Counted from the stretch's first letter, positions 4,486-23,606 are shown. The stretch: 29,837 nt of DNA from Promethearchaeota archaeon (GCA_008080735.1 SHMW01000052.1:1-29837); one strand, 5' to 3'. The notes: generated from the letters alone by a model not told the origin. A program made the numbers and translations.

Positions 4486-4830
4486 TTAATTGGGAAATTC
4501 ATAGCCACAATTTTTACAAATAGTTTTTTTGGCATAAATCTTAAGTCCACCTTGTTGGTGAAGCACTTTAGATTTATCAGATTCTTCCTTAAAATCGGTT
4601 CCCCCGCATTTGGGACAAACCCGCCGCCCTTCAATAGGGGGAGCTTCTTCCAATTTTTCCTCCTCCTCTTGTTTATCAACGACTGCTGAAGGTTTTACAG
4701 AGCCTCCACCTGATTTCGCGGCACGCGAGATTACACTAGTTCCACCAGTACCACCGGAATTTAGAAGCTTATCCAGTTTGGAATTTACTGTTTCCAATAA
4801 GTCGATCACTTTTTCCTCAAATTCAGTCAA
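4486..4830 (-). CDS. Small zinc-ribbon protein (N-terminal amphipathic helix, Gly/Ser linker, acidic patch, CPKC...CKNC)
   Basis: Two CxxC pairs; TTG start preceded by an SD-like GAGGAG on the minus strand (about 4839-4844). Confidence 0.8.
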   Translation of the reverse strand: MTEFEEKVIDLLETVNSKLDKLLNSGGTGGTSVISRAAKSGGGSVKPSAVVDKQEEEEKLEEAPPIEGRRVCPKCGGTDFKEESDKSKVLHQQGGLKIYAKKTICKNCGYEFPN

Positions 4831-4973: not shown

Positions 4974-7313
4974 TTAGGTTCTTTGTTTAACAGGTACAAA
5001 CATCTTGAAAAAATTTTGTTTCACACTTACTCCGCCATGGAATTTAATAATTATCTTATTTCCCGAGAGTGTGGTTGCATGTAGACTATTATAAGAATCA
5101 CCAAAACCATTGAAAATTATAATTTCCCCATCCGAGATACTAGAATCCAATTTTGAAGAATCTTTTATTCTTAAATGCATTCCTGATTCAATATCTGCTA
5201 AATCGTTAACATTATGGATGCTTGAAAACGAATAAGAACCCGCATAATTCTCTACTACATAATCATAGAGCTGTTTAAGTGGTTTCTTTTCTATCTCAAC
5301 AACCTCTCCTTTAATTCCTCGCTTAGCGATCAGTAAAGCAGCAATCGCATGATCAACAAATCCTTTGCTTTTAACTTCGCTCACGAGTTTCCCATCTTGT
5401 AATTGATATAAAGCCTCTTTAGTTGTTTTGAACTCATTTACCAGAAAGATGTCAGGTGGTTGAAATTTCGGTGCTGAAACTTTTTCTTGAGCTTGTCTCT
5501 CTGATTCCTCAGTATATTTACTGTAATCCGTTATAATACATTCGTTATTTTCACACGGAATATTAAAATATTCAATTAGGAAATCAATAATAAACTTTGA
5601 ACCGGGACCATTTCCAACAAATATTTTATTGATAAATTCCTTATCATCACTCAAAAAAAGATCAAGCTCCTCGTGAAGTTGATCTTTGGCAGCCATACGT
5701 GTTTTTGTATTTTTTATATTCTCTTTAAGATTTACATACCAAAGAGATGGAAGTTCCGAACGTTCGATCATACAAAAACCAAAATGTCTAGTGCCCGGGT
5801 CTACCGATAAGATTCTCTCACTCTGTTCGAAATTAAAAAGGTTAATATCGGCCCTTCCGTTGGATATTTTCATCAATGAATTAAAGAATTTTTCAAATTC
5901 TTGATTTTTAACTTGTAAGAAAAATACATTCGCTTGAGATTGATACAATACCTCAATATCGTACTTTTCAATAATGGAATAAATATTATGATAATTTTCT
6001 ACTTTCACAATAACATCTTGATGTGGAACTATTTTAATTAGTCCTACTTTTTCTATAGCTTTCGCAATTGCTTGAGCGATATCATCTTCGTTTTTCCCCG
6101 AGAGGATATCTACATGAAGTCCGTCAAGATGAAATGCTTCATAAGCTGTTGTGGCCCCTAAAATATCATACATTCGTTTCTCTTTTTTGCCTCTACGAGT
6201 AATAGTTATTTGTTTTTTGAAGCGGGGAGCAATTCGTACTCTGGCAGTGTTGTAACGAGCCTTACTTTTTTTGTTTATGGTTATGATTCCTTTAACTTTA
6301 GATTTTGTGATTTTAAAGTTAATTAGAGTCTCAAGGTTTTCCTTGATAAAATCAAACTGTACATTTCCAAGTACTTGAATAATTATTTCTCTTTTTTCTA
6401 TATAATAATCAAAAGAAGGAACTATTTTTTTAAGATTTTCGAGTATTTCTATTCCGGTCTTAAATTTAACTGCATCATCAATCTGGATATGAAATTCTTT
6501 TCTTGGTTGGATCTCTGATAAGATACTGTCGATTTTAGCAGAGAAAAACTTTCCTTTATAATATTTGGTTCCCAATTCAAATTTTGAATCTATATTTAAT
6601 GATGCTTGTACGATTTGCCCTTCATACGCAACTTTCAGAGGTTTTCCTTTTATAGAAAATAACTGCCGAATACGAACTTTGTCAGAGATGTAGGTATTTG
6701 ATTCTAGTTTGCCAGAAAAAATTCCAATATTGATTAATTCCCCAATCCCTTTTTTTTGATTATACCCTAAAATAATAAACCCAGGTTCTTCATCATAATT
6801 TTCTCTATGTCTAACGTAGATAGATAATTTTTCAATTAATTCATCAATACCAAATACTTCCTTTGCCGATGTTTCTATAATAGGATATTTTTTATTATCT
6901 AATCTTGTAAGGTCTTTTTCAATTTTCTGTGTATCAGCTGTTCGGAGATCCATTTTTGTAGCCGCAATGATAACCGGAAGATCTTTTTTGAGTGCTTTTT
7001 CATGAAGCCAGTAAGTCCTTGCTTGAAAGCCCTCATTTCCTGAAACAACTAAAACTAAAAGATCAGCGAATTCCAGACCAAGTGCAATGCTGCCTTTAAA
7101 ATCCGCATGTCCAGGAGAATCCAAGAAATTGAGCAAAATGTTCTTTTCTTTGAGCATGAATTGAATTACTTTCAAACTCACTGTGGTTCCATGATTAAGC
7201 TCATAATCGAGATTATCGGGAAACTTACCCACTATTCTGGAGATTAAAGAAGATTTCCCCGCTTGGGAATGTCCAGCAACGAGTACATTGATAATTCGGT
7301 GTTTTTTCTCCAT
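4974..7313 (-). CDS. EF-G/TetM-like translational GTPase fused to a C-terminal YqgF/RuvX (RNase H-fold) nuclease domain
   Basis: G1 GHSQAGKS, G2 ELNHGTTV, G3 DSPGHADF, G4 TKMD, G5 TSAK. EF-G domain III-like (IIIQVLGNVQFDFIKENL) and domain V-like (FFNSLMKISNGRADINL) segments follow. Then come the YqgF-like motifs ILSVDPG, FVGNGPGS, LVNEFKTTKEA and VDHAIAALLI. Confidence 0.8.
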   Translation of the reverse strand: MEKKHRIINVLVAGHSQAGKSSLISRIVGKFPDNLDYELNHGTTVSLKVIQFMLKEKNILLNFLDSPGHADFKGSIALGLEFADLLVLVVSGNEGFQARTYWLHEKALKKDLPVIIAATKMDLRTADTQKIEKDLTRLDNKKYPIIETSAKEVFGIDELIEKLSIYVRHRENYDEEPGFIILGYNQKKGIGELINIGIFSGKLESNTYISDKVRIRQLFSIKGKPLKVAYEGQIVQASLNIDSKFELGTKYYKGKFFSAKIDSILSEIQPRKEFHIQIDDAVKFKTGIEILENLKKIVPSFDYYIEKREIIIQVLGNVQFDFIKENLETLINFKITKSKVKGIITINKKSKARYNTARVRIAPRFKKQITITRRGKKEKRMYDILGATTAYEAFHLDGLHVDILSGKNEDDIAQAIAKAIEKVGLIKIVPHQDVIVKVENYHNIYSIIEKYDIEVLYQSQANVFFLQVKNQEFEKFFNSLMKISNGRADINLFNFEQSERILSVDPGTRHFGFCMIERSELPSLWYVNLKENIKNTKTRMAAKDQLHEELDLFLSDDKEFINKIFVGNGPGSKFIIDFLIEYFNIPCENNECIITDYSKYTEESERQAQEKVSAPKFQPPDIFLVNEFKTTKEALYQLQDGKLVSEVKSKGFVDHAIAALLIAKRGIKGEVVEIEKKPLKQLYDYVVENYAGSYSFSSIHNVNDLADIESGMHLRIKDSSKLDSSISDGEIIIFNGFGDSYNSLHATTLSGNKIIIKFHGGVSVKQNFFKMFVPVKQRT

Positions 7314-7553: not shown

Positions 7554-8378
7554 ATGAAATCTAATGAAAAAGAATCTGAATGGTTAATTCCAAAGTCGGA
7601 AATTTCTTTCGAATATTTGACTCGATTCAATCGGAATATGATGGTTCTGCATTTAATACAAGGAATTTTGATGATTATTCTTGGACTTTTGCCAACATTT
7701 CAATATGAAGCAAATATTTATACTATATATCCAATATATTTCCCAGATGTTGCTCCAGGGCCCGAATTGCTATTCGAGTTTAGCGCAGTTGGAGCGTTAG
7801 TAGGCATATTTCTCTTATTGTCGGCCATCGCACATTTTTTAATAGCATACCCTCTGAACAAAATGTATCAAGAAGATTTAAAGAAAGGTATAAATAAAGT
7901 GCGCTGGTTTGAATATGCTCTTTCCAGTTCAGTGATGATAGTATTAATCGCAATTTTTTTTGGTGTGCGAAGTTTCTGGTTATTATTTACTCTTTTCGTT
8001 TCCAATGCGCTTATGAATATGTTTGGATTGATTATGGAGCAATATAATGTATATACACGAAAGATGGGCGAGAAAATTCGATGGGGTCCTTATTATCTTG
8101 GAGTAATAGCTGGTGTGGTGCCTTGGATCGTTATCACCGCATTTTTTATCACAGCAGGCTTAGAAGCAGCAGGAGAAATTCCCTTATTTGTATATTTGAT
8201 TTACGGCATTGAATTGTTCTTCTTTAATACATTCGCAATCAATATGATACTTCAATATAAAGAGGTAGGAAAATGGAAGGACTATCTATATGGTGAACGG
8301 GTATATATCGTTCTTAGCTTAGTTTCAAAAACATTCTTAGCGTGGCTCGTCTTCTTTGGAGTTTTCCAACCTGCCTAA
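7554..8378 (+). CDS. heR: Heliorhodopsin
   Basis: 7-TM pattern; N-terminal LTRFN..VLHLIQG; AIAHF; INKVRWFEYALSSSVM; NALMNMFGLIME; YLYGERVYIVLSLVSKTFLAW with the retinal-binding Lys. Confidence 0.95.
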   Translation: MKSNEKESEWLIPKSEISFEYLTRFNRNMMVLHLIQGILMIILGLLPTFQYEANIYTIYPIYFPDVAPGPELLFEFSAVGALVGIFLLLSAIAHFLIAYPLNKMYQEDLKKGINKVRWFEYALSSSVMIVLIAIFFGVRSFWLLFTLFVSNALMNMFGLIMEQYNVYTRKMGEKIRWGPYYLGVIAGVVPWIVITAFFITAGLEAAGEIPLFVYLIYGIELFFFNTFAINMILQYKEVGKWKDYLYGERVYIVLSLVSKTFLAWLVFFGVFQPA

Positions 8379-8890: not shown

Positions 8891-9063
8891 TTTGACTCAA
8901 TTCTATAAAATTTATGATTATTGTTTATTATGAATTAGGTAAATTAATAATTATCTCTCTCCTATCAATCGCATAATGTTCTAAATACTCATAATAAGAT
9001 TATAAAAATATAAATAGTTTTTAATCTTAGTATTATCATTTTAATGAATTTGAGGTGAATTGT

Positions 9064-10221
9064 ATGAATGAAGATCTAATCAATTTATTAAAGGATAGGA
9101 TGGGTAAGTATTTCCTTGATGCAGAGGTAGCTGAATCAGTTGCTAATGAAGAATTGTATGGATTGTTTAAGGACAGAAAAATAGATATCCTGCCTTTTAG
9201 AATTAAGGTAGAAGGGTATTCTTTCACATATGTTGGTCTTATTTTCGAAGCGGTACATTGGGATGAAGGTGTTATAAAAATAGTATCAGTCATAGAGTTT
9301 CAACCCCCTAAAGTTTATCCCATACCAGTAGCGTTCTTTTGCAATTCAGAACAAGGAATTTCATTTGCACCCGTTTTGGACCCAATGGATCCTGCAGAGG
9401 CTAAGACTGAGATTCCAGAACATTGGTGGACTAACCGCAGAGAAGGGTTTGGAGCGGCTGCAGATAAATTTTCTAATTGGTTAAATAAGGAGATTAAAGG
9501 GAAAAAATTTGAAAAACAATTTTCCCCTTTCTATACATTTAAAAAAGGAAATTGGCACACCAGTTTTTGTGAAATGGATTCAGTTAATATTAGTCCCTCA
9601 AAAAGGGAAGGAATGGTGACGATCCGAATCTCAGAGTTTACTACGTTTTCACCGAAAAAAACTAACTTTTTTCCTAAACATAAGTTGAGCAATACTTTGG
9701 ATGTTTTTGAGCAGCTAATTGAAAAATATAACGAATTTGTCTCCGCTGTAGATTTTACTAATTATCCTCATGATCCCTATCTATCTGGCCCAGAAGCATT
9801 TGTATGTAAGAAATGTGAATCGCTAATTTTTCCTTCAACCTTGGAAAGATTAAATCTATTTGTTCCCTTGATAATGAGAGGGAAGACAGATGGAAAAACC
9901 CCATATTATGAATTGAAATCTCAGTGTCCTAACTGCGGAGAAAAACGCGATGTCATTAGTCATCTTGATGATTTAAATACGATTAATGCTGCTGGAGAAC
10001 TATTTTGGGTATGCCCGTTTGATTTGACTCCATATGAAATCGAGGATGAAAAGAAGAAGGACAATAGCGTAAAGTATCAAATGAGATGTCCCCAATGTAA
10101 CAATAAAGTGAAAAAAGAAATTGAAGAGAATTACCTTAATATGATTGAAAAGAGTAAAGGTATTCCTTCACCTAACTTAAGTATAGAACAAGGCACTAAA
10201 GTTGTGAGGTATAATTTTTAG
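9064..10221 (+). CDS. Hypothetical protein with C-terminal multiple zinc-ribbon knuckles
   Basis: CKKC, CPNC, CPFD and CPQC motifs in the C-terminal third. SD-like GAGGTG at 9052-9057 favours ATG 9064 over GTG 9055. Confidence 0.8.
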   Translation: MNEDLINLLKDRMGKYFLDAEVAESVANEELYGLFKDRKIDILPFRIKVEGYSFTYVGLIFEAVHWDEGVIKIVSVIEFQPPKVYPIPVAFFCNSEQGISFAPVLDPMDPAEAKTEIPEHWWTNRREGFGAAADKFSNWLNKEIKGKKFEKQFSPFYTFKKGNWHTSFCEMDSVNISPSKREGMVTIRISEFTTFSPKKTNFFPKHKLSNTLDVFEQLIEKYNEFVSAVDFTNYPHDPYLSGPEAFVCKKCESLIFPSTLERLNLFVPLIMRGKTDGKTPYYELKSQCPNCGEKRDVISHLDDLNTINAAGELFWVCPFDLTPYEIEDEKKKDNSVKYQMRCPQCNNKVKKEIEENYLNMIEKSKGIPSPNLSIEQGTKVVRYNF

Positions 10222-10732: not shown

Positions 10733-11191
10733 TTATTCTCTTCTTTTTCCTTCAACATCTTCAAAATAATCTAAAATAGATTCCTTAATCTCAATCGCTG
10801 GATAGATTAATCGAGATTGATATACATACTCCAGAGCATCGTCCCATGTCCATTCTTGATAGGTTTTTAATAACCACGCAACAATAATCCCCCCCGAACG
10901 ACTGATGCCCATCGCACAATGTACCAAAACCTTGCCTTTTTCAATCTGCTCATCTATAAATTCTAAAATATCTTTTAAGAAGCTATGTGGAGGATACCAA
11001 TCATCAGGAAAACCGCGATGGAGATATTCAAATCCTAATGGACGCGGATCATAGAGATCTTCTTCCATAAGATTCACAATAGCAGTAATTCCCAGTTTTT
11101 TAAACTTTTCAAAATTAAGTCGTGGCCAATACGCTCCAATGTATAAATTCTTATGAATCCTATAAATTTGATCTAATTCTGGTTGGCTCAT
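10733..11191 (-). CDS. Dual-specificity protein phosphatase (Cys-based CX5R family)
   Basis: LYIG, GITAIVNL, general-acid FPDD, P-loop VLVHCAMGISRS, and a ..SRLIYP motif. Confidence 0.93.
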   Translation of the reverse strand: MSQPELDQIYRIHKNLYIGAYWPRLNFEKFKKLGITAIVNLMEEDLYDPRPLGFEYLHRGFPDDWYPPHSFLKDILEFIDEQIEKGKVLVHCAMGISRSGGIIVAWLLKTYQEWTWDDALEYVYQSRLIYPAIEIKESILDYFEDVEGKRRE

Positions 11192-11223
11192 TATCTCCGA
11201 AAAATAAAATATGCTTGAAATTA

Positions 11224-11619
11224 TTATTCAATCGCCTTCATATCCCTGCTTGCGATTATATTGGCCTCTTGCCCCACAACATTTTCGATAAGAATATCCC
11301 CCATTTTGATTGGGGCTTTTACAACAGTTTTGGCGATTTCTTCCAAAGCATCGTTTAATTTTTCTTTAGGAATTGCTTTATCTACTCTTACCGGGACTAA
11401 TGGTAAAAACCCATTTTCTACTCTGATCGTGGTGGTGAGCACTCGTTTAGGCTCATAGAATTCTTGTTTCGCATACTCTAAACCCCTCTTACAGGTATAA
11501 CCTTCGAAGGTGACATCTCCTTCTGGTGTCTCTTTTACTTCGATCTCACAACCAGTTGGACATACGATACATCTTATAGTCTTAATTACACCCGAATCTT
11601 CGCAACTTTCCATATTCAT
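11224..11619 (-). CDS. DUF1667-type small Cys-rich subunit (CxxCPxGC...C)
   Basis: CIVCPTGC, GYTCKRG, PKRVLTTTI, APIKMGD; 4-bp overlap with the upstream oxidoreductase. Confidence 0.9.
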   Translation of the reverse strand: MNMESCEDSGVIKTIRCIVCPTGCEIEVKETPEGDVTFEGYTCKRGLEYAKQEFYEPKRVLTTTIRVENGFLPLVPVRVDKAIPKEKLNDALEEIAKTVVKAPIKMGDILIENVVGQEANIIASRDMKAIE

Positions 11620-12932
11620 GATTCTTCCTCCCCTTCCTCCTCATCGATTAATGGTTCAGGTCGTGGAATAACCTCAACGATTAACTCACTACAAGTCGGA
11701 TTGATGTCTAATTTTGCCATATCTAATTTAAGTTCAATCATTTCACTCGGGATTACATATCTTTTCTTTCTCTTATAGACTACTCTATTTGTTTCATCCT
11801 TTATTTGAATCTGAACTCTACGATCAGGACGTCTGACGCGGAATGTTAAAACTACTTTTTCCGATAAATCGGATACATTAACTAAATCTGGTTTTACATA
11901 ATTTACATTTTCACCAGCGATACACAGAATTTTTCCACCCTTTTTAATTTCCTTTCCATATCGTTCCTCAATATAATCAACCGCTTCTTTTCCAGCTCGT
12001 TTCGCCTCAGCTGAAACCCAATCAACTAAATCATGAACTTGAAGGACATTACCACAAGCAAACACACCCTCAAGAGTGGTTTCCAGATTATTATCCACAA
12101 TAGGACCACCCATATCGGAAATATCGGCACCCGCCTCTTTGGTAAGTTCATTTTCTGGGATGAGTCCAACAGATAATAAGAGTGCATCACATTCTATAAA
12201 TCGGTCAGTCCCAATTATACGATCAAAATTCCGGTCGACTTTGCTAACGGTGACTCCTTTAAGTCGGTCCTTTCCATGAATTTTGGTGACTGTATAGCCC
12301 GTAATTAATGGAATATTATAATCTTCCAAACATTGGACTTGGTTTCTTATCAATCCGCTCACGTATGGCTGAATTTCTACTACTGCCTTTACATTACAAC
12401 CTTCCCAGGTCAATCGCCTCGCCATAATCATTCCGATATCTCCACTTCCTAAAATAACGTAGGTGCGACCCGGTAGATACCCTTCAATATTAACAAATCT
12501 TTGGGCTTGACCCGCAGTGTAAATACCAGCTGGTCTAAATCCAGGAATATTAATTGCCCCTCTTGTGCGCTCGCGACATCCCATCGCTAAGATTATCGAT
12601 TTCGCAGATACTTGTATCATTCCCTCATCTTTATTAACAGCATAAATTTTCCTCTCTGGAGTGATTTCAATTACCATAGTATCTAATTTATAGGGAATAT
12701 TTAATTCTTTGACCTCATTAATAAATCTTTGAGCATATTCTGGTCCCGAAAGTTCCTCACCAAATTCTGTAAGTCCAAAGCCTACATGTATGCATTGGAG
12801 TAGGATTCCACCTAATTCAATATCCCGCTCTAAGATTATGGTTTCGTATCCTGCCTTTTTTACTTCGATAGCGGAGGCTAAGCCCGCAGCTCCACCTCCG
12901 ATGATTGCAACATCCGTTTCATATGTTTTCAT
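11616..12932 (-). CDS. FAD/NAD(P)-dependent pyridine nucleotide-disulfide oxidoreductase (partner of the GlpA-like enzyme)
   Basis: GGGAAG, GGILLQCIH.GFG, LAMGCRER, ILGSGDIG, GVFACGNVLQVHDLVD. Confidence 0.92.
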   Translation of the reverse strand: MKTYETDVAIIGGGAAGLASAIEVKKAGYETIILERDIELGGILLQCIHVGFGLTEFGEELSGPEYAQRFINEVKELNIPYKLDTMVIEITPERKIYAVNKDEGMIQVSAKSIILAMGCRERTRGAINIPGFRPAGIYTAGQAQRFVNIEGYLPGRTYVILGSGDIGMIMARRLTWEGCNVKAVVEIQPYVSGLIRNQVQCLEDYNIPLITGYTVTKIHGKDRLKGVTVSKVDRNFDRIIGTDRFIECDALLLSVGLIPENELTKEAGADISDMGGPIVDNNLETTLEGVFACGNVLQVHDLVDWVSAEAKRAGKEAVDYIEERYGKEIKKGGKILCIAGENVNYVKPDLVNVSDLSEKVVLTFRVRRPDRRVQIQIKDETNRVVYKRKKRYVIPSEMIELKLDMAKLDINPTCSELIVEVIPRPEPLIDEEEGEEES

Positions 12933-14413
12933 TTGTTTGCTACACTTTCCTTTATTTCTTTTAATCGTACATCTTTCGTCTTTGCAACCAAAAGATTGGT
13001 ATCTTCTCCCTTTTTAGTAATAGCTTGATATGGGAGATGAAGTTCTCTCGCGAGTATTTCCATAACCCTCGGTCTGCAGAACCCTCCTTGGCATCTGCCC
13101 ATTCCTGGCCTACATCTGAATTTAACACCATCAACTGTCGTCGCTCCAACTGGCGCATGAATGGCATTCAGAATTTCTGCCTCTGGGATTGTCTCACATC
13201 GACAGATAATCCTTCCCCATGCAGGATTTTCTTTAATTTTTTTATCTAATTCTTCTTTACTCATATCTGCTAATCGCTGTGGTTTAGGTCTGATAGGATT
13301 ATAATTTTCTTTTTCCTTTAACTGGACACCTAATAATTCCAAAAAGTCAAGTACCTTTTCCGCGATAGCATAGCAAGAAGTCAAACCCGGAGAAAGAATC
13401 CCAGCAACATTAATGAATCCGTAGATATCGGTATTATCGATAATAAAATCATAACTATCTGGAACAGCACGTAAGCCAGCAAAATTGCGGATAGAAGCCC
13501 TCAACGGTAAGTTTGGTATGAGGTTTTTTCCTCCTTCTAATACTTCTTTTAATCCCGCGGTTGTCGTCGCAGTATCTTCTTTATCAGTGATATTCTGAGC
13601 ATTCGGACCCGCGAATGTATTACCATGCATTGTTGGACATACTAAAATGCCTTTAGAGATTTTAGTAGGAACTGGAAATAAGATTTTATTTAATTGAATT
13701 TCATTTCTATCAAATAGTACATATTCCCCCTTTCTGGGCATAATATCAAAATAATCCAGCCCTAACATTTTCGAGATTTTTCCCGCGTAGAGTCCCGCGC
13801 AATTAATGAGATTTCTGCCCTTGAATTCTCCCCTACTCGTAGTGACGGTGAAGGTGTAGTCCCTATGATCTATCTTTATTACTTCATGATTTCTAAAAAA
13901 TTTTACTCCATTCATCGCAGCATTTTCGGCTAAGGCAAACGTCATTTCATATGGACTGACAATCCCCGCCGAAGGTGCATGTAAGACCGCTAAAACCTCA
14001 TCGGTAAGATTGGGCTCCAATTCACGAATCTGCTCTTTATCTAAAATTAATTCAAGGTCATGGATCCCATCTTCAATTCCTTTTTTTCGTTCTTCCTCAA
14101 GACCTTTTATTTGATCGGGTTCCACAGCACATACAAAAGATCCAATACGCGAAAACGGAAAATTCAATTCTTTTGCGGCTTGAGTATATAATTTGTTACC
14201 GCGAATACATAAATCTCGTTTCACATATTTTCTATCTGCGGCATATCCCGCGTGTACGACTCCCGAGTTTGCTTTTGTCGTACCAGATGAAATATCAGCT
14301 TCCTTCTCTAATAAGCAGACTTTTATGTCATATTTACATAAAGCTCTTGCTATTGTACATCCGGTCACGCCGCCTCCAATAATTATAATATCATAAATAT
14401 TTGAAGATGACAT
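12929..14413 (-). CDS. FAD-dependent oxidoreductase, glycerol-3-phosphate dehydrogenase GlpA/LhgO-like, with C-terminal BFD-like [2Fe-2S] domain
   Basis: IIGGGVTG, TTKANSGVVHAG, PRKGEY, FAGLRA, SPGLTS, ICRCE...RPGMGRCQGGFC. Confidence 0.88.
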   Translation of the reverse strand: MSSSNIYDIIIIGGGVTGCTIARALCKYDIKVCLLEKEADISSGTTKANSGVVHAGYAADRKYVKRDLCIRGNKLYTQAAKELNFPFSRIGSFVCAVEPDQIKGLEEERKKGIEDGIHDLELILDKEQIRELEPNLTDEVLAVLHAPSAGIVSPYEMTFALAENAAMNGVKFFRNHEVIKIDHRDYTFTVTTSRGEFKGRNLINCAGLYAGKISKMLGLDYFDIMPRKGEYVLFDRNEIQLNKILFPVPTKISKGILVCPTMHGNTFAGPNAQNITDKEDTATTTAGLKEVLEGGKNLIPNLPLRASIRNFAGLRAVPDSYDFIIDNTDIYGFINVAGILSPGLTSCYAIAEKVLDFLELLGVQLKEKENYNPIRPKPQRLADMSKEELDKKIKENPAWGRIICRCETIPEAEILNAIHAPVGATTVDGVKFRCRPGMGRCQGGFCRPRVMEILARELHLPYQAITKKGEDTNLLVAKTKDVRLKEIKESVANK

Positions 14414-16593: not shown

Positions 16594-18333
16594 ATGAGTC
16601 AGACTTATAGTATACTTTCAAAAGATTTAAAACAAAAATTCAAAGATATTGTCGGGAATGATTCTTTTTTTGATCAAAAAGAAATCAGATGGACTTACGC
16701 ATTTGGAGGGACCGTATTCGAAAAAGATTGGATACCCGATCTAATTTTATTACCCAAGAATAGAGATCAAATTACTAAAGTTTTACAACTAGCGAACCAG
16801 AAAAAAATTCCAATAACACCACGGGGGAGTGGAACGAGTTTATCGGGAGGTGCTATGACTCCATACGGAGGAATCGTATTAGATGTTTCACGATTGAATA
16901 AAATTTTAGATATAGACATTGAAAATAATATAGTAAAAGTGGAACCTGGAGTTATATGTGATGATTTAAACGAAGAATTGAAAAAATATGGGTATTTTTT
17001 CCCTCCAGATCCTGGTTCGAGTTCGGTAGCTACAATTGGCGGGATGGTAGCTAATAATGCTGGAGGAATTCAAGCATTCAAGTATGGAGTCACGAAACAA
17101 TACGTTATGTATTTGGAAATAGCATTAGCAAATGGAAAAATATTAAATCTGGGAACAGATGTATTAAAATCTGTCGCCGCCTATAATATTAAAGATTTAT
17201 TTATAGGCTCCGAGGGAACTTTGGGAGTTATCACCAAAATTGGGCTGCGAATACGACCCTTACCTACTCAGCGAAAATTAGGTCTTTTTATTTTTGATGA
17301 GGTGAAAGATTTAGAAAACGCGGTTAGGAATATTAGAAAGGAAGGTATTATACCTAACTTACTTGAATTTATGGATAGGGTGATTTTAAAGGCAGTAAGA
17401 GAGTATTTGGGGGGTGAGTTCTACGATTTTCCAGATGGATATGTACTCTTGGCAGAAATGGACGGGAATATACAAGATCATGTGGAGGATGAGTTTACCC
17501 AGATATACGACAATATAATCCAGCAAAACCCAAAATTTTATAGAATTGCGAAAAATGATAAAGAGAGGGAACGCTTAATTCAAGCACGGAAGGCAAATCT
17601 TCCCGCACTTTCGAGAATAAAACCAACCACGTGTGTAGAGGATTGCACGATAAGTCTGACGCATTTCGCAGATGTAATCAAAAAGATTGAACAAATACCG
17701 GAAGAAATAGGCGCGACCAACTTAGAAGTGGCGATTATTTGTCATATGGAAGGAAATCTTCACCCCACATTCTTATTCAATGAAAATAACCCCAAAGATG
17801 TAGAAGATTTTGAAAAAGCTCTTGACTATTTATATAGAAAAATTATTATCCCTATAGGTGGGTCCATTACAGGAGAGCATGGAATCGGCAAAATCAAGAC
17901 ACCATATTTAGAGTTATCTCATGGAGAACAAATAACCGAAAAAATGCACCAAATTAAACAATTATTTGACCCGAATATGATTCTAAATCCCGGAGTCGGA
18001 AAAGGAGATACTCGTAAGTTGGATGAAGCAGACAAATCTAGACAACTCAAAAATCAAAAGGAAAAAGTCCTGGAACTCGCATGCATGAGATGTGGTTTTT
18101 GTATTGCGTCATGTCCAAGTCGTAAACATTATAATATCGAAGCTTATAGCCCAAGAGGACGATTAAGTATCCTAAACGGATTGGTTTATGGGGATTTAAA
18201 ACCAAATCAACTAATTACCGACATTCTTCATACATGTACTTTATGTGGGTTATGTCTGGAAAAATGTCCATCAGGTGTGGGAACTTACAAAATATTTGAA
18301 CAAGCAAGAGAGATAATACATAAAAATGAATGA
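16594..18333 (+). CDS. FAD-linked 2-hydroxyacid (D-lactate/glycolate, GlcD-like) dehydrogenase with fused C-terminal 2x[4Fe-4S] domain
   Basis: PRGSGTSLSGG, PPDPGS, TIGGMVANNAGG, GSEGTLGVIT, GNLHP, TGEHGIG, FDPNMILNPG; CMRCGFCIASCP and CTLCGLCLEKCP. Confidence 0.92.
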   Translation: MSQTYSILSKDLKQKFKDIVGNDSFFDQKEIRWTYAFGGTVFEKDWIPDLILLPKNRDQITKVLQLANQKKIPITPRGSGTSLSGGAMTPYGGIVLDVSRLNKILDIDIENNIVKVEPGVICDDLNEELKKYGYFFPPDPGSSSVATIGGMVANNAGGIQAFKYGVTKQYVMYLEIALANGKILNLGTDVLKSVAAYNIKDLFIGSEGTLGVITKIGLRIRPLPTQRKLGLFIFDEVKDLENAVRNIRKEGIIPNLLEFMDRVILKAVREYLGGEFYDFPDGYVLLAEMDGNIQDHVEDEFTQIYDNIIQQNPKFYRIAKNDKERERLIQARKANLPALSRIKPTTCVEDCTISLTHFADVIKKIEQIPEEIGATNLEVAIICHMEGNLHPTFLFNENNPKDVEDFEKALDYLYRKIIIPIGGSITGEHGIGKIKTPYLELSHGEQITEKMHQIKQLFDPNMILNPGVGKGDTRKLDEADKSRQLKNQKEKVLELACMRCGFCIASCPSRKHYNIEAYSPRGRLSILNGLVYGDLKPNQLITDILHTCTLCGLCLEKCPSGVGTYKIFEQAREIIHKNE

Positions 18334-19627
18334 TATAAATAAAATAGTATTGGATTATGGAACAGATGGCTTAGAAATAGCGATACAACCAGAATGGAAT
18401 GTAGATATTATTAAACCGAAACACCAACAGCCATTACGCAACCCAGTTGAGGGGATTAAACAAGCCTTAAAAAATCCCATTGGATCTGAATCATTAAGAC
18501 AAATTCTAAACAAGAAGCAAGATTTTAATAGAATTTGTATGGTTGTGAGTGATGCCACAAGACCTGTTCCCTCTCATCTCATTTTAAAGGCACTAATAGA
18601 AGAATTAAATGTGAATGGTGTAGAAGATAATAAAATTAATGTGTTAATTGCGACAGGATTACATCGAAAAACTAGACAAGAAGAAAAAGAACGAATTATA
18701 GGAAAAGAAATACTTAATCGAGTGAATGTAATTGATCATGTCGCAACTGACGATAACTCACTTATCCACTTGGGAAAAACTTCTGATAATGTGCCAATTT
18801 GGATAAACAAATTCTATTATGAAAGTGAAATAAAAATTCTTACCGGATATGTCGAACCGCACTTTTTCTTTGGGTTTTCTGGGGGGAGAAAATCATTAGT
18901 TCCTGGCATCGCGGGTAAGGAGACGATCCTTCAAAATCATTCCGCAGAAAACATCCATTCTCCATTTGCTCGATTTGGCGTTTATGAAAAAAATCCTATG
19001 CATAAAATCTCAATGGAGATTGCTGAGAAAATAGGGATTGATTTTGTTATTAATGTATGTATAAATGAAAAGCATCAAATAACAAAGGTTATTGCGGGAA
19101 ATTATAAAAAAGCACATGAAATTCTCGTAGAATTTCAATTAGAGAAGGTGTTTAAGGAAATAGATGAACCCTATGATATTGTTATTTGCGGAAACGGGGG
19201 ATATCCATTAGACTTAAACCTCTATCAAGCAGTAAAAAGTATGGCAATCGGAGAGATGGCGGTAAAACACGGAGGAACAATAATTTCTGTGAACGAATTA
19301 TCTGACGGAATAGGGGTCGGACAAGATAATTTTAGGGATTTAATCTATTCGGGTATGACTCCCAAACAGATTTATGAGAAGACTCTGAATAATGAGATTA
19401 TAGTACCTGATGTGTGGGAAATTATGGTTTTAGCACGAGTTCTCATGAAAGCAGAAGTCTATGTCATATCCGAATTAAAAGAAAAAGATCTTGGAAATAT
19501 TGGTTTAAAATATGCTAAAACTGTAGTTCAAGCAATCGAAAAGGGATTAGAAAAACACGGAAAAGACTCCAAGATTCTAATTTTACCTAATGGACCGCAA
19601 ATTCTGCCTACTATTGTAAATACTTGA
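18326..19627 (+). CDS. larA: Nickel-pincer-dependent lactate racemase LarA family
   Basis: VVSDATRPVP, IATGLHR, DHVA, VEPHFFFGFSGGRKS..PG, GGYPLDLNLYQAVK; overlaps the upstream gene. Confidence 0.92.
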   Translation: MNDINKIVLDYGTDGLEIAIQPEWNVDIIKPKHQQPLRNPVEGIKQALKNPIGSESLRQILNKKQDFNRICMVVSDATRPVPSHLILKALIEELNVNGVEDNKINVLIATGLHRKTRQEEKERIIGKEILNRVNVIDHVATDDNSLIHLGKTSDNVPIWINKFYYESEIKILTGYVEPHFFFGFSGGRKSLVPGIAGKETILQNHSAENIHSPFARFGVYEKNPMHKISMEIAEKIGIDFVINVCINEKHQITKVIAGNYKKAHEILVEFQLEKVFKEIDEPYDIVICGNGGYPLDLNLYQAVKSMAIGEMAVKHGGTIISVNELSDGIGVGQDNFRDLIYSGMTPKQIYEKTLNNEIIVPDVWEIMVLARVLMKAEVYVISELKEKDLGNIGLKYAKTVVQAIEKGLEKHGKDSKILILPNGPQILPTIVNT

Positions 19628-19870
19628 GTGAACTACAAACCCCCTCAAGGGGGTGGCTTCAACCATTCGGCTAGGCCTTTGCGACGCTAACTTCAATCGA
19701 TTGTTCGGGGCATTCACGGGTCCCCCATCCCAGCGAACTCGTTATCCGCTGAGCTATGTTGATGGCAGCATTCACGTCTCTATCGTAGGTGAGCCCGCAC
19801 CGAGAACACTCATAATTGCGATGAAAGCCCACCTTATTTAAGGTGCCACAGCGGTGGCACTCCTTAGAGG
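19608..19870 (-). ncRNA. Putative TnpB omega-RNA (reRNA) scaffold plus flanking guide
   Basis: Position matches the known omega-RNA location (tnpB 3' end to right end, guide from the flank); hairpins at 19843-19860 and 19639-19654. The 5' end and expression are unknown. Confidence 0.5.
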
Positions 19871-19915
19871 TATTAAGGGATCTTATCCCTTAAGGGATGA
19901 GTTTTCTCGCATTTT
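19628..19915 (-). mobile_element. Non-autonomous, internally deleted IS200/IS605-family (tnpB) element (MITE/PATE-like)
   Basis: GC-richer island. Minus-strand right end GAAGCCACCCCCTTGAGGGGGTTTGTAGTTCAC (hairpin 19639-19654, terminal TCAC at 19628). Left-end palindrome ATCCCTTAAGGGAT at 19885-19898. A tnpB 3' fragment lies between them. The left boundary is uncertain by a few bp. Confidence 0.88.
19671..19877 (-). pseudogene. tnpB: tnpB 3' fragment (Zn ribbon + RuvC III)
   Basis: Manual translation: LNTSKECHRCGTLNKVGFHRNYECSRCGLTYDRDVNAAINIAQRITSSLGWGTRECPEQSIEVSVAKA*. No start codon; the rest of the gene is missing. Confidence 0.9.
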
Positions 19916-20261
19916 CAATGATAAATTATAACAAAAATTGATGTATTTAAATCTATAATGTATAACTAAATATGATGATTCCTTTATGGGTTATATCATT
20001 AACACAATTATCTCCATTTCAATCCGTGATAGGGGATATAACATTTTAAAAATCATAAAAGTTTTAAATAATAGTGTATCTTAAAAAGGTTTATGCAGTC
20101 TTTGGTAAAGTAGAAGCAAATCTTTTCGTTACCAAAATTGTCGACATGAATTTTTCTTTATTGCATTCGAACTTTCTGATGTGTGAAAGTAGATAATGGA
20201 AAAGTAGACCAAGATCAAGATCATTATTTTTCAAAAAGTAAAAAATTATGGATATAAAAAA

Positions 20262-21191
20262 ATGACTAAGAATTATAAGGAACGTCTAAAAAGCAAAAAT
20301 GATGGAGTTCTGGAAAAGCATGAACCAGTCAAGTGCTGTGAGAATCCCTGTATTGAATCCCGAGATGGCGATCATGTATGTTTGAATTGTGGTATGATTC
20401 ATTCTCGAAATCTTGTTGGGAACGAGCGAAGAGCATATACAGCTGAAGAAGTTAATAAAAGGAGAAGGACCGAGCCCCGTTGGCGAGAATTTGGGCCACG
20501 TACAATGCTCCCTAATTCTAAAACTGATTCAAAAGGACGCCTAATTGGAGCAAAAGGGAAAACTTTATTCTCTCGCTTATCGAAAATACAGAATTCATTA
20601 ATTTCAAGTATCGAACGGAACTTCTGGGAAGCGAAACCTAAATTAAAAATGCTTAGTTCGAAATTAAACACTCCAGAGTATATAAAAGAAACCGCATGGA
20701 AAATTTATTCTGTTGTAGCAAAAAAGAAACTTACAATGGGTAGATCTATTGATGGGTTTATCGCAGCTGCTTTATATGCCGCAATCCGAGTTCATGAATT
20801 TCCGCGCTTAATGGAAGAGGTATGTGAAGCGGCAATGACCCCAAGAAGGACAGTCCATCGATCTTTGGCTATGATTGTAAAAGATGTACTTCCCATGCTT
20901 GGACTTAAATATAAGCCCATTACTGCTGAACAACTCGTCTTTCGATTCGGAAATGATTTAAATCTACCGATGGAAGTTCAGAAAAAGGCAATTGGATACT
21001 TAATAAATGCTTCTAAAAATGGTCTTATGAGAACCGGTAAAGACCCTAAAGGGCTCGCAGCAAGTGTTATATATATGGCAGCGAAATCAACTAGTTTAAG
21101 AAAAACCCAAGCAGAAGTAAGCGAAATTGCGAGGATTACTGAAGTTACCCTAAGAAGCCGTTCAAAACAAATTAAAAGTCGATTACATTAA
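20262..21191 (+). CDS. tfb: Transcription initiation factor IIB (TFB) family protein
   Basis: N-terminal Zn ribbon CCENPC...VCLNCG; two cyclin repeats (GRSIDGFIAAALYAAIR; GKDPKGLAASVIY); C-terminal HTH TQAEVSEIARITEVTLRSR. Confidence 0.95.
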   Translation: MTKNYKERLKSKNDGVLEKHEPVKCCENPCIESRDGDHVCLNCGMIHSRNLVGNERRAYTAEEVNKRRRTEPRWREFGPRTMLPNSKTDSKGRLIGAKGKTLFSRLSKIQNSLISSIERNFWEAKPKLKMLSSKLNTPEYIKETAWKIYSVVAKKKLTMGRSIDGFIAAALYAAIRVHEFPRLMEEVCEAAMTPRRTVHRSLAMIVKDVLPMLGLKYKPITAEQLVFRFGNDLNLPMEVQKKAIGYLINASKNGLMRTGKDPKGLAASVIYMAAKSTSLRKTQAEVSEIARITEVTLRSRSKQIKSRLH

Positions 21192-22061: not shown

Positions 22062-22130
22062 AGAAGCCTAATAGTTTTTTAGAAACGCACAAAATTATTA
22101 ATTTTTGCTTAATTAATCCATTTGATTAAC

Positions 22131-23606
22131 ATGACAGATCAAGATGATACTCCACAAACGGGTATAACAGTCTCAAAAGAAGAAGATTTTTCAGAATGGT
22201 ACACCCAAATACTCACAAAAGCAGATCTGGCGGATATTAGATATAATGTAAAGGGTTTCGTGGTATACCGCCCATGGGCGACTATATCCATAAAAAAAAT
22301 GTATCGAAAATATGAAGATTTGCTTGAGCAAAATGGACATTTACCGTTAGTAATGCCCTCTGTAATTCCTGAACGAAATTTCCAAACAGAAGCAGAGCAT
22401 GTAGAGGGATTCGCCCCAGAAGTATTTTGGGTATCTGAAGTGGGTTCTGAAGGAGAACGTCTTAATGAACGATTAGCATTGCGTCCTACAAGTGAAACTG
22501 CTCTCTATCCGATGTATAGTTATTGGATTCGTAGCTATAACGATCTACCCTTCAAGCGATACCAGTCTTGTCAAGTATGGCGATATGAGGGAAAAATGAC
22601 TCGGCCTTTCTTTAGAGGACGTGAATTTCATTGGATTGAGGCGCATAATGTATTCGCAACTATGGAGGATGCAAAGGAACAGGTAAAAGAAGATATGCAG
22701 ATGACCTATCAGATGCTTCAAGATGAATTCTGTATCCCAATTATATTCTTCCAACGTCCAGAATGGGATAAGTTTCCAGGAGCTGTGCATACATATGCCG
22801 CTGATGCGCTAATGGGATCTGGAAAAGTCTTACAATTGCCATCAACCCATTTACTCGGCCAAAATTTTTCGAGACCGTTTAATGTAAGCTATATTGATGA
22901 AGACGGGCAAGAAAAATATGGATATATTACTTGTTATGGGCCCGCGATCTCGCGAATCTATGGGGCAATGATTTCTTATCTCGGTGATGATAAAGGACTA
23001 ATCTTACCTTATGATCTTGCCCCAGTGCAAATAGTTGTTGTTCCTATAATTTTCAAAAACAAGGAAAAGATAGTCCTTGATAAGGCTTATGAACTTCATG
23101 AAAAACTAAAAGAGACTTATAACATTCGATTAGATGATTCGGAAGATTCTCCCGGTCAAAAATTCTATTTCTGGGAGATGAAAGGAGTTCCATTCAGGAT
23201 AGAGATTGGCCCAAGAGACATTAAAAAAGAACAGGTTGTAATCGTTCGACGATATGACGGAGAAAAGTTTTTTGTCAAAGAAGACCAATTAGAAGCAAAA
23301 TTGGCGGATTTAGCTTCCAAATATACTAAGGAACTCTGGAAAAAAGCGTTTATTGATTTTGAAAGTGAAATTGAGGTAGCTTATGAAATTGATTCAGCAA
23401 AAGAGGCAATTGAAAACGGAAAAATTGTTGCGTGCGGTTTTTGTTCCATAGATAAAGACGGAGAGCGATGTGCTGAGGTTATAGAGAAAGATGTGGGAGC
23501 ATTTGTAAGAGGCAAGAGGGTAGATGAAGAAAAGCACGACTTCGCTACTTGTCTCGTGTGCAACAAACCAGCCAGCTGTACAGTATACTTAGCGAAAAGC
23601 TATTAA
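22131..23606 (+). CDS. proS: Proline--tRNA ligase, archaeal/eukaryotic type
   Basis: DFSEWY, EAEHVEGFAPEV, LRPTSET, VWRYE..TRPFFRGREF, HLLGQNFS, WEMKGVPFRIEIGPRD, C-terminal Zn site and AKSY end. ATG 22131 is preferred to TTG 22122. Confidence 0.97.
   Translation: MTDQDDTPQTGITVSKEEDFSEWYTQILTKADLADIRYNVKGFVVYRPWATISIKKMYRKYEDLLEQNGHLPLVMPSVIPERNFQTEAEHVEGFAPEVFWVSEVGSEGERLNERLALRPTSETALYPMYSYWIRSYNDLPFKRYQSCQVWRYEGKMTRPFFRGREFHWIEAHNVFATMEDAKEQVKEDMQMTYQMLQDEFCIPIIFFQRPEWDKFPGAVHTYAADALMGSGKVLQLPSTHLLGQNFSRPFNVSYIDEDGQEKYGYITCYGPAISRIYGAMISYLGDDKGLILPYDLAPVQIVVVPIIFKNKEKIVLDKAYELHEKLKETYNIRLDDSEDSPGQKFYFWEMKGVPFRIEIGPRDIKKEQVVIVRRYDGEKFFVKEDQLEAKLADLASKYTKELWKKAFIDFESEIEVAYEIDSAKEAIENGKIVACGFCSIDKDGERCAEVIEKDVGAFVRGKRVDEEKHDFATCLVCNKPASCTVYLAKSY

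Follow-up and report, generated by a model that had tools for sequence, protein, structure and literature searches.

A translational GTPase fused to a YqgF-type RNase H-fold domain in Promethearchaeota and Methanopyri, a candidate ribosome-docked nuclease

Introduction

Almost all translational GTPases (trGTPases) act on the ribosome, the named exceptions being CysN and Snu114 (PMC4342817). In clostridia, an EF-G-like GTPase fused to a C-terminal NYN/YacP RNase domain (Tet-NYN) was proposed to cut RNA at the ribosome, a role that was untested there (Atkinson 2015, PMC4342817). The same study gives aSelBL as the only archaeal addition to the trGTPase set, and the archaeal survey of Narrowe 2018 reported no further aEF-2p proteins (PMC6143161). 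The aEF-2p proteins were judged not to be translocases from the lost conservation of their tip loops (PMC6143161). YqgF proteins cut RNA, and the one from E. coli is tied to 16S processing (PMC9601230).

Here we analyse a stretch of 29,837 nucleotides from a Promethearchaeota archaeon (GCA_008080735.1 SHMW01000052.1:1-29837), hereafter called the window. An earlier note, made from the sequence alone, had read the open reading frame (ORF) at positions 4974-7313 as an EF-G-like trGTPase fused to a YqgF-type nuclease, and hence as a candidate for a ribosome-targeted, GTP-gated RNase. The fusion belongs to a conserved trGTPase subfamily with a YqgF nuclease that is apparently undescribed. Our literature search found no description of it, although a passing annotation in the 2002 M. 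kandleri genome paper is possible. The archaeal additions to the ancestral trGTPases recognized so far are aSelBL and aEF-2p; the fusion would be a further family, present in neither paper.

The fusion protein and its homologues

The ORF lies on the minus strand and encodes 779 amino acids (aa) without any internal stop. Apart from the record of the query itself, a search with residues 170-779 recovered 94 proteins (54-87 % identity), mostly full-length, and about 90 full-length homologues of the fusion are known. These homologues place the host in the Lokiarchaeia/Promethearchaeia. Deep members with 28-33 % identity came from a further search among 1.8 billion representatives; those that carry a name are from Methanopyrus sp., Ca. 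Asgardarchaeum and Asgardarchaeia. The domain order is identical in all complete homologues. A contig from run X2, which possibly comes from the source study, bridges positions 5453-6040 and so crosses the junction between domain V and the nuclease (~5826). An assembly chimera is ruled out by the full-length homologues together with this contig. The GC content of the fusion (0.328) resembles that of the genome (0.336), with both halves alike, and the column identity in the homologue alignment is similar across all domains (0.61-0.72). Such equal conservation suggests that both halves are being maintained. The ORF is one conserved protein and a real fusion.

The continuous frame claimed in the earlier note was thus upheld, and all of its motifs were found as cited, namely GHSQAGKS (14-21), DSPGH (65-69), TKMD (119-122), SAK (149-151), D505, E627 and D654. 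Its reservation that the homologues might always be two separate genes did not hold, as the complete homologues are fused. The strand, the shortened domain IV, the C-terminal domain at residues 673-779 and N626 were absent from that note. Standard profiles recognize the G domain alone, with no NCBIfam match for residues 170-680, which explains why databases label the homologues simply as 'GTP-binding protein'.

The nuclease and C-terminal domains

The RNase H fold that the earlier note expected in the C-terminal region was recovered in a separate model of residues 497-779. This model matched the D. radiodurans YqgF structure (7w89) with a VIA-align Z of 11.3 and a root-mean-square deviation (rmsd) of 2.6 over 110 residues, and E. 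coli YqgF (1nmn) with Z 9.9; RuvX was also matched. The best structural matches of the nuclease domain were Tex and Spt6 (Z 12-13), with values of 12.3-13.2 for the YqgF domain of Tex. YqgF clusters in the ESM Atlas matched the domain with template modelling (TM) scores of 0.68-0.74 by the match. Three deep homologues (P0097, P0098 and P0100) scored 32.8-34.8 bits with the Pfam RuvX profile vs a cut-off of 29.2, which the query, P0101 and P0102 did not reach. The alignment to Tex stops at model residue 174-186; 107 aa follow the nuclease, and no Pfam match to a helix-hairpin-helix (HhH) or S1 domain of the Tex/Spt6 type was found after the YqgF domain in 26 members.

The acidic set of YqgF/RuvX/Tex type proposed in the earlier note (D505, E627 and D654) aligns with D9, E96 and D122 of E. 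coli YqgF, and the positions of the three YqgF carboxylates in PMC9601230 coincide with this alignment. In the 95 full-length homologues, to which the counts below also refer, the three residues are invariant, together with E633 and H655, and the triad is also kept across the members that are only 28-33 % identical. Position 626 is Asp in 91/95 and Asn in the query and three others (4/95); run X1 shows Asn throughout at this position, with no alternative letter. A variable insert specific to Lokiarchaeia lies at about residues 585-620. The YqgF domain appears intact and is probably an active nuclease.

The best profile match of the fused domain was a stand-alone archaeal YqgF-like family (E 8e-17 vs 6e-10 for bacterial YqgF and 3e-7 for Tex), and all 17 tested members scored highest on that profile. 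In the nuclease tree, which has 130 columns and many long branches, the domain joins bacterial YqgF (99/100), while the archaeal grouping was not rejected (p=0.37).

The proteins of the stand-alone family are 200-300 aa long and consist of an N-terminal domain and a YqgF-like domain with DPG, GxG and the beta5 Glu (L188:1180-1854, L257-L281). The family occurs in 161/301 Asgard genomes, its Pfam matches are weak and it has no NCBIfam name. The DPG motif is apparently absent from the copy in the host genome (G000 C6:57766-58680, minus strand). Tex homologues above the Pfam cut-off were found in 23/301 Asgard genomes and in none of the host's family. No genome among those listed has both Tex and the fusion, but these numbers are small and the relatives are not independent.

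The C-terminal beta domain is present in every full-length member. We found no usable match for residues 673-779 in Pfam, PDB sequences or ESM Atlas features, and among short proteins only near-identical fragments matched.

The G domain and EF-G-like body

Membership in the trGTPase superfamily is indicated by the G domain motifs and the domain II barrel. Pfam GTP_EFTU matched residues 6-166 (E 1.4e-26, 93.7 bits), and K20, T44, D65, G68, H69, D71, F72, K120 and D122 are invariant. H69, the catalytic His, is among them.

Residues 2-494 aligned with E. coli EF-G 5-684 in HHalign (probability 99.7%, E 6.9e-27), colinearly over domains G-II-III-IV-V, and the matches that the earlier note had drawn to EF-G segments in domains III and V were both recovered by profile alignment. 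The full AlphaFold model has a mean confidence score (pLDDT) of 79. Its best Foldseek matches were aEF-2 and EF-G (E 3e-26), where that note had expected EF-G, TetM or BipA for the N-terminal body and YqgF for the C-terminal part. In VIA the body reached Z 33, with model residues 1-338 superposed on EF-G 3-486 at rmsd 2.6; chains of Snu114 tie with aEF-2 at the head of the list. The EF2-family traits of the fusion are the EF-G-type domains III and V and the PGHxDF signature of switch II. Domain V of the Methanopyrus homologue gave a Pfam EFG_C match with E 0.004.

Domain IV is 91-94 aa long in the family vs 121-135 in EF-G/Tet/EF-GII and about 163 in aEF-2. In two independent alignments its core is kept, and the parts that are gapped are loop I, the region of loop II, and loop III, which holds the conserved His. 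LepA and BipA have only 14-34 residues at this position vs 92 aa in the fusion, which scored 61 bits vs 534 with NCBIfam lepA and 54 vs 757 with TypA. With domain IV cut to ~92 aa and devoid of all three tip loops, a role of the fusion protein as a translocase seems unlikely. The compact EF-G order of domains II to V given in the earlier note therefore stands as a colinear alignment, but not as a functional EF-G or aEF-2, since the tip loops are absent and the branch is separate.

Table 1. Positions of the fusion gene, its domains and key codons, and the two genes flanking the conserved site (window coordinates)
Feature	Position	Strand	Basis
Whole ORF: trGTPase (G-II-III-mini IV-V), YqgF-type RNase H domain, C-terminal beta domain	4974..7313	(-)	sequence, model, alignments
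G domain (aa 1-168), without G' insert	6810..7313	(-)	Pfam, HHalign, homologue counts
Domain II beta-barrel (aa 169-268)	6510..6809	(-)	HHalign; model
Domain III (aa 269-338); G316, aligned with the EF-G motif GMGELH, is invariant	6300..6509	(-)	alignment, model
Miniature domain IV (aa 339-430), net basic, tip loops I, II and III deleted	6024..6299	(-)	alignments
Domain V (aa 431-495), invariant G486	5829..6023	(-)	HHalign
YqgF-type RNase H-fold nuclease domain (aa 497-672)	5298..5825	(-)	separate model, structure matches, HHalign, Pfam
D505 codon, aligned with E. coli YqgF D9, end of beta1	5799..5801	(-)	HHalign; 95/95
N626-E627 codons, aligned with YqgF D95-E96, end of beta5	5433..5438	(-)	HHalign, counts
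D654 codon, at the start of the last helix, aligned with YqgF D122; the next residue, H655, is invariant	5352..5354	(-)	HHalign, counts
Linker helix, then a basic beta domain of five strands (aa 673-779; barrel ~706-779)	4977..5297	(-)	separate model, homologues
Zinc-ribbon gene, 114 aa, downstream of the fusion; one side of the conserved site	4486..4830	(-)	locus comparison
Dual-specificity phosphatase gene; other side of the site	10733..11191	(-)	Pfam, locus comparison

Phylogenetic position

The trGTPase tree suggested in the earlier note was built from domains G and II of 49 sequences (244 columns, LG+C20), with EFL1 and Snu114 left out. All fusion proteins group in one clade (100/99). In this tree the clade lies apart from the sampled EF2 family (99/98) and likewise from IF2 plus EF1S (97/91). 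The approximately unbiased (AU) test rejected a grouping with aEF-2 (p=0.0036) and with SelB/aSelB/aIF2gamma (p=7e-7), whereas groupings with LepA (p=0.095), EF-G/Tet/RF3 (p=0.079) and IF2 (p=0.129) were not rejected. In a tree of domains III and V the fusion again sits on a long separate branch. By these trees the fusion is a distinct trGTPase subfamily and not a recent duplicate of aEF-2. The stem is long and the sampling thin, and the subfamily may be a truly ancient lineage or a fast-evolving offshoot.

Two other origins were considered and rejected. A SelB/EF-G chimera, to which the short G1 region resembling that of SelB had pointed, is rejected by the AU test, and domains III-V are EF-G-like. 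Descent from aEF-2, or from an ancestor of the Snu114 plus Prp8 RNase H kind, was set aside with the rejected aEF-2 grouping.

The host genome also encodes two EF-2-type genes, EF-1A, aIF5B and aSelB, so the fusion is an extra factor. The two EF-2-type genes (G000 C2:38229-40424 and C9:70615-72894, frames of 732 and 760 aa) are consistent with a pair of aEF-2 and aEF-2p. A further match, G000 C23:22617-23003, is a small-GTPase-type domain in a 736-aa frame that matches through the G domain only and is not a paralogue of the fusion.

Distribution and locus

The fusion is single-copy in the host. The search in other genomes that the earlier note had proposed recovered it in some Lokiarchaeia, a few other Asgard archaea and all Methanopyri searched (6/6), with the triad kept as described above. 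The 23/301 Asgard genomes with the fusion include 20/68 in the host's family and two in other families, plus the host.

In Lokiarchaeia the fusion lies between a dual-specificity phosphatase gene and a zinc-ribbon gene. The phosphatase gene is directly upstream of the fusion in many relatives and is kept with or without it. At empty sites the two flanking genes are ~90-150 bp apart with no remnant of the fusion (four loci inspected; about eight more by coordinates). Such clean empty sites in relatives indicate that the fusion is dispensable. The occupation of one site in several genera, together with clean absence elsewhere, points to vertical inheritance with repeated loss.

The neighbours are metabolic or housekeeping genes in all lineages. 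A functional link to the phosphatase or the zinc-ribbon protein was considered and rejected, as both remain without the fusion and genus g3 has the fusion and no phosphatase match. A defence island found no support: neither the query nor its neighbours had a PADLOC match, and two homologues match LeoA through the G domain only. A scan for sigma-70 promoters gave hits at chance level, with a model that is unsuited to archaea.

Several other genes of the window were recognized. The 114-aa zinc-ribbon protein belongs to no named family, and it or its paralogues match in 80/81 family genomes. A heliorhodopsin gene at 7554-8378 (plus strand, Pfam E 5e-84) is divergent from the fusion here and in several relatives, and in some lineages it lies between the phosphatase and the fusion, apparently as an insertion. 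The gene at 9055-10221 (plus strand) encodes a protein of 388 aa that has no family match and carries two zinc ribbons in its C-terminal part. The region 10733-14413 (minus strand) is a conserved run of a GlpA-like FAD oxidase with a BFD domain, a pyridine nucleotide-disulphide oxidoreductase, DUF1667 and the dual-specificity phosphatase, which resembles a glycerol-3-phosphate dehydrogenase cluster. At 16594-21191 (plus strand) there are an FAD-linked oxidase with a 4Fe-4S domain, a LarA-family racemase and a TFIIB paralogue, followed by ProRS at 22122-23606.

Discussion

We somewhat favour the view that the fusion is a ribosome-docked, GTP-gated RNase, in which ribosome binding, GTPase activity, cleavage and substrate are all inferred. 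In the GTP form, domains G, II, III and V would dock at the factor-binding site in the manner of EF-G, LepA and BipA. The blunt domain IV could enter the A-site space without prying at the decoding centre, and thereby sense an empty or abnormal A site without driving translocation. About six residues separate the nuclease from domain V, at the point where the C-terminal domains of LepA and BipA are attached. For this reason the nuclease is expected to occupy the A-site side of the intersubunit space, and the basic barrel may help to hold the RNA. D505, E627 and D654 would bind Mg or Mn and cut the RNA presented there, be it A-site tRNA, mRNA or nearby rRNA, and GTP hydrolysis at H69, triggered by the ribosome, would release the factor. 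The most likely purpose would be the clearing of stalled, damaged or misassembled ribosomes under stress, with late trimming of rRNA as the second choice.

Several observations weigh against this proposal. The P-loop Asp, which binds a monovalent cofactor in other trGTPases (PMC4342817), is replaced by Gln in 82/95 homologues and the G4 Asn by Thr in 92/95, and with these changes the GTPase switch may be atypical. Both replacements occur in Lokiarchaeia; the deep members retain GHVDHGKS. In the full model pLDDT falls below 50 at residues 494-497 and 628-669, and with the linker poorly modelled the geometry of the nuclease relative to the body is predicted with low confidence. Some YqgF/RuvX proteins cut branched DNA instead (PMC9601230), and none of the conserved neighbours at the compared loci is a ribosome-related gene.

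Alternatively, the protein could be a ribosome remodeller like LepA, BipA or EFL1, engaged in subunit maturation or factor eviction, with a YqgF domain that serves as a rarely cutting or non-cutting RNA clamp as in Tex and Spt6. Both of these head the structural matches (Z 12-13), Tex is without the third carboxylate and its activity is uncorroborated (PMC3985635), and the missing G' insert is shared with LepA and BipA, the LepA grouping not being rejected (p=0.095). We nevertheless regard this as rather improbable, as the three carboxylates, E633 and H655 are invariant in 95/95 and the sequence is nearer to YqgF and the stand-alone archaeal family than to Tex. Ranked behind it is a core nuclease of rRNA processing, which would be to archaea what YqgF is to E. 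coli and which the GTPase would bring to pre-ribosomes to trim a precursor end. The fusion occurs in only 23/301 Asgard genomes and is cleanly absent from the site in relatives, the host has a separate stand-alone YqgF-like gene (C6:57766-58680), and the ribosomal factor-binding site is far from the 16S 5' end. The repeated clean loss in close relatives does not sit well with an essential part in rRNA maturation of the kind played by E. coli YqgF. This alternative draws on the link of YqgF to pre-16S 5' processing (PMC9601230), on RsmB/F methyltransferase genes <8 kb away in three deep loci, and on the presence of the fusion in 6/6 Methanopyri, where profile alignment A5 found no clear stand-alone YqgF-like gene.

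Lower again we place a stress or antiviral ribotoxin that, once triggered, would cleave tRNA or rRNA on the ribosome and so halt translation. The combination of a GTPase and a nuclease is common in conflict systems, and the distribution is patchy within genera (1/22 in g2, 8/27 in g5). However, in eight genera the gene occurs as a single copy that keeps its chromosomal position amid metabolic genes, with a pattern of loss, and it has the GC content of its genome (0.328 vs 0.336), no PADLOC match and a place in all Methanopyri searched. The least probable of the four is a machine that works off the ribosome like Snu114, with a repurposed EF-G-like body and a nuclease directed to branched DNA, R-loops or nascent transcripts. 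In its favour are the cleavage of Holliday junctions by mycobacterial RuvX and the H. pylori homologue and that of RNA/DNA hybrids by E. coli YqgF (PMC9601230); moreover, Snu114 ties with aEF-2 atop the VIA list, and the G1 and G4 motifs are altered. Yet the EF-G signature glycines are kept in domains III and V, the grouping with the aEF-2 lineage, the source of Snu114, is rejected (p=0.004), and DNA-repair genes are not among the conserved neighbours.

The cutting of RNA on stalled or faulty archaeal ribosomes is poorly known, and a GTPase with its own nuclease would be a direct candidate for it. The proposal of a ribosome-docked RNase is testable now, as a close homologue is encoded in a closed genome of 1,694,969 bp from the Methanopyrus group. 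The deep position of the fusion in the tree also bears on the origin of the EF-G domain set. More tentatively, and with considerable doubt, the fusion could represent an ancient separate trGTPase lineage that split off close to the root of the EF2 family and persists in Methanopyri and some Asgard archaea as a single-protein, GTP-licensed RNase for stalled or faulty ribosomes, with no characterised counterpart.

Comparison with known systems

The fusion shares with EF-G and aEF-2 the G-II-III-IV-V order, the fold (Z 33), the DxPGHxDF switch II and the catalytic His. It differs from them in having no G' insert, in a domain IV that is 30-70 aa shorter and lacks the tip loops, including the conserved His loop, in its two extra C-terminal domains and in its separate branch, with the aEF-2 grouping rejected. 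LepA (EF4) and BipA/TypA, which are accessory and dispensable ribosome factors, likewise have no G' insert and carry an extra domain straight after domain V. However, they come from bacteria or organelles, have C-terminal domains other than nucleases, and are without domain IV, of which the fusion keeps a short form. Asgard aEF-2p (Narrowe 2018, PMC6143161) is also an archaeal EF-2-family paralogue with degenerate domain IV tips that is thought to be non-translocating, but it is full-length, groups with aEF-2 and has no nuclease, and the host has two EF-2-type genes besides the fusion.

With YqgF/RuvX and the YqgF domain of Tex/Spt6, the nuclease part has in common the RNase H fold, the Asp of beta1, the Glu of beta5 and the Asp of the last helix, as well as DPG and GNG as in Tex. 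Unlike these proteins, the fusion has a GTPase, an invariant His that follows the third Asp, and a barrel without a known family, and it is devoid of HhH and S1 domains. A Bacillota genome (L285:226-2877, minus strand) encodes a Tet-like GTPase of 884 aa that ends in a YacP/NYN RNase domain, a fusion of the type described by Atkinson 2015. This Tet-NYN type is the closest conceptual precedent, being an EF-G-like GTPase with a C-terminal RNase domain. It differs in its unrelated nuclease, which is NYN/PIN-like vs the RNase H fold, in a full-length domain IV and in its bacterial Tet ancestry, and is an independent fusion.
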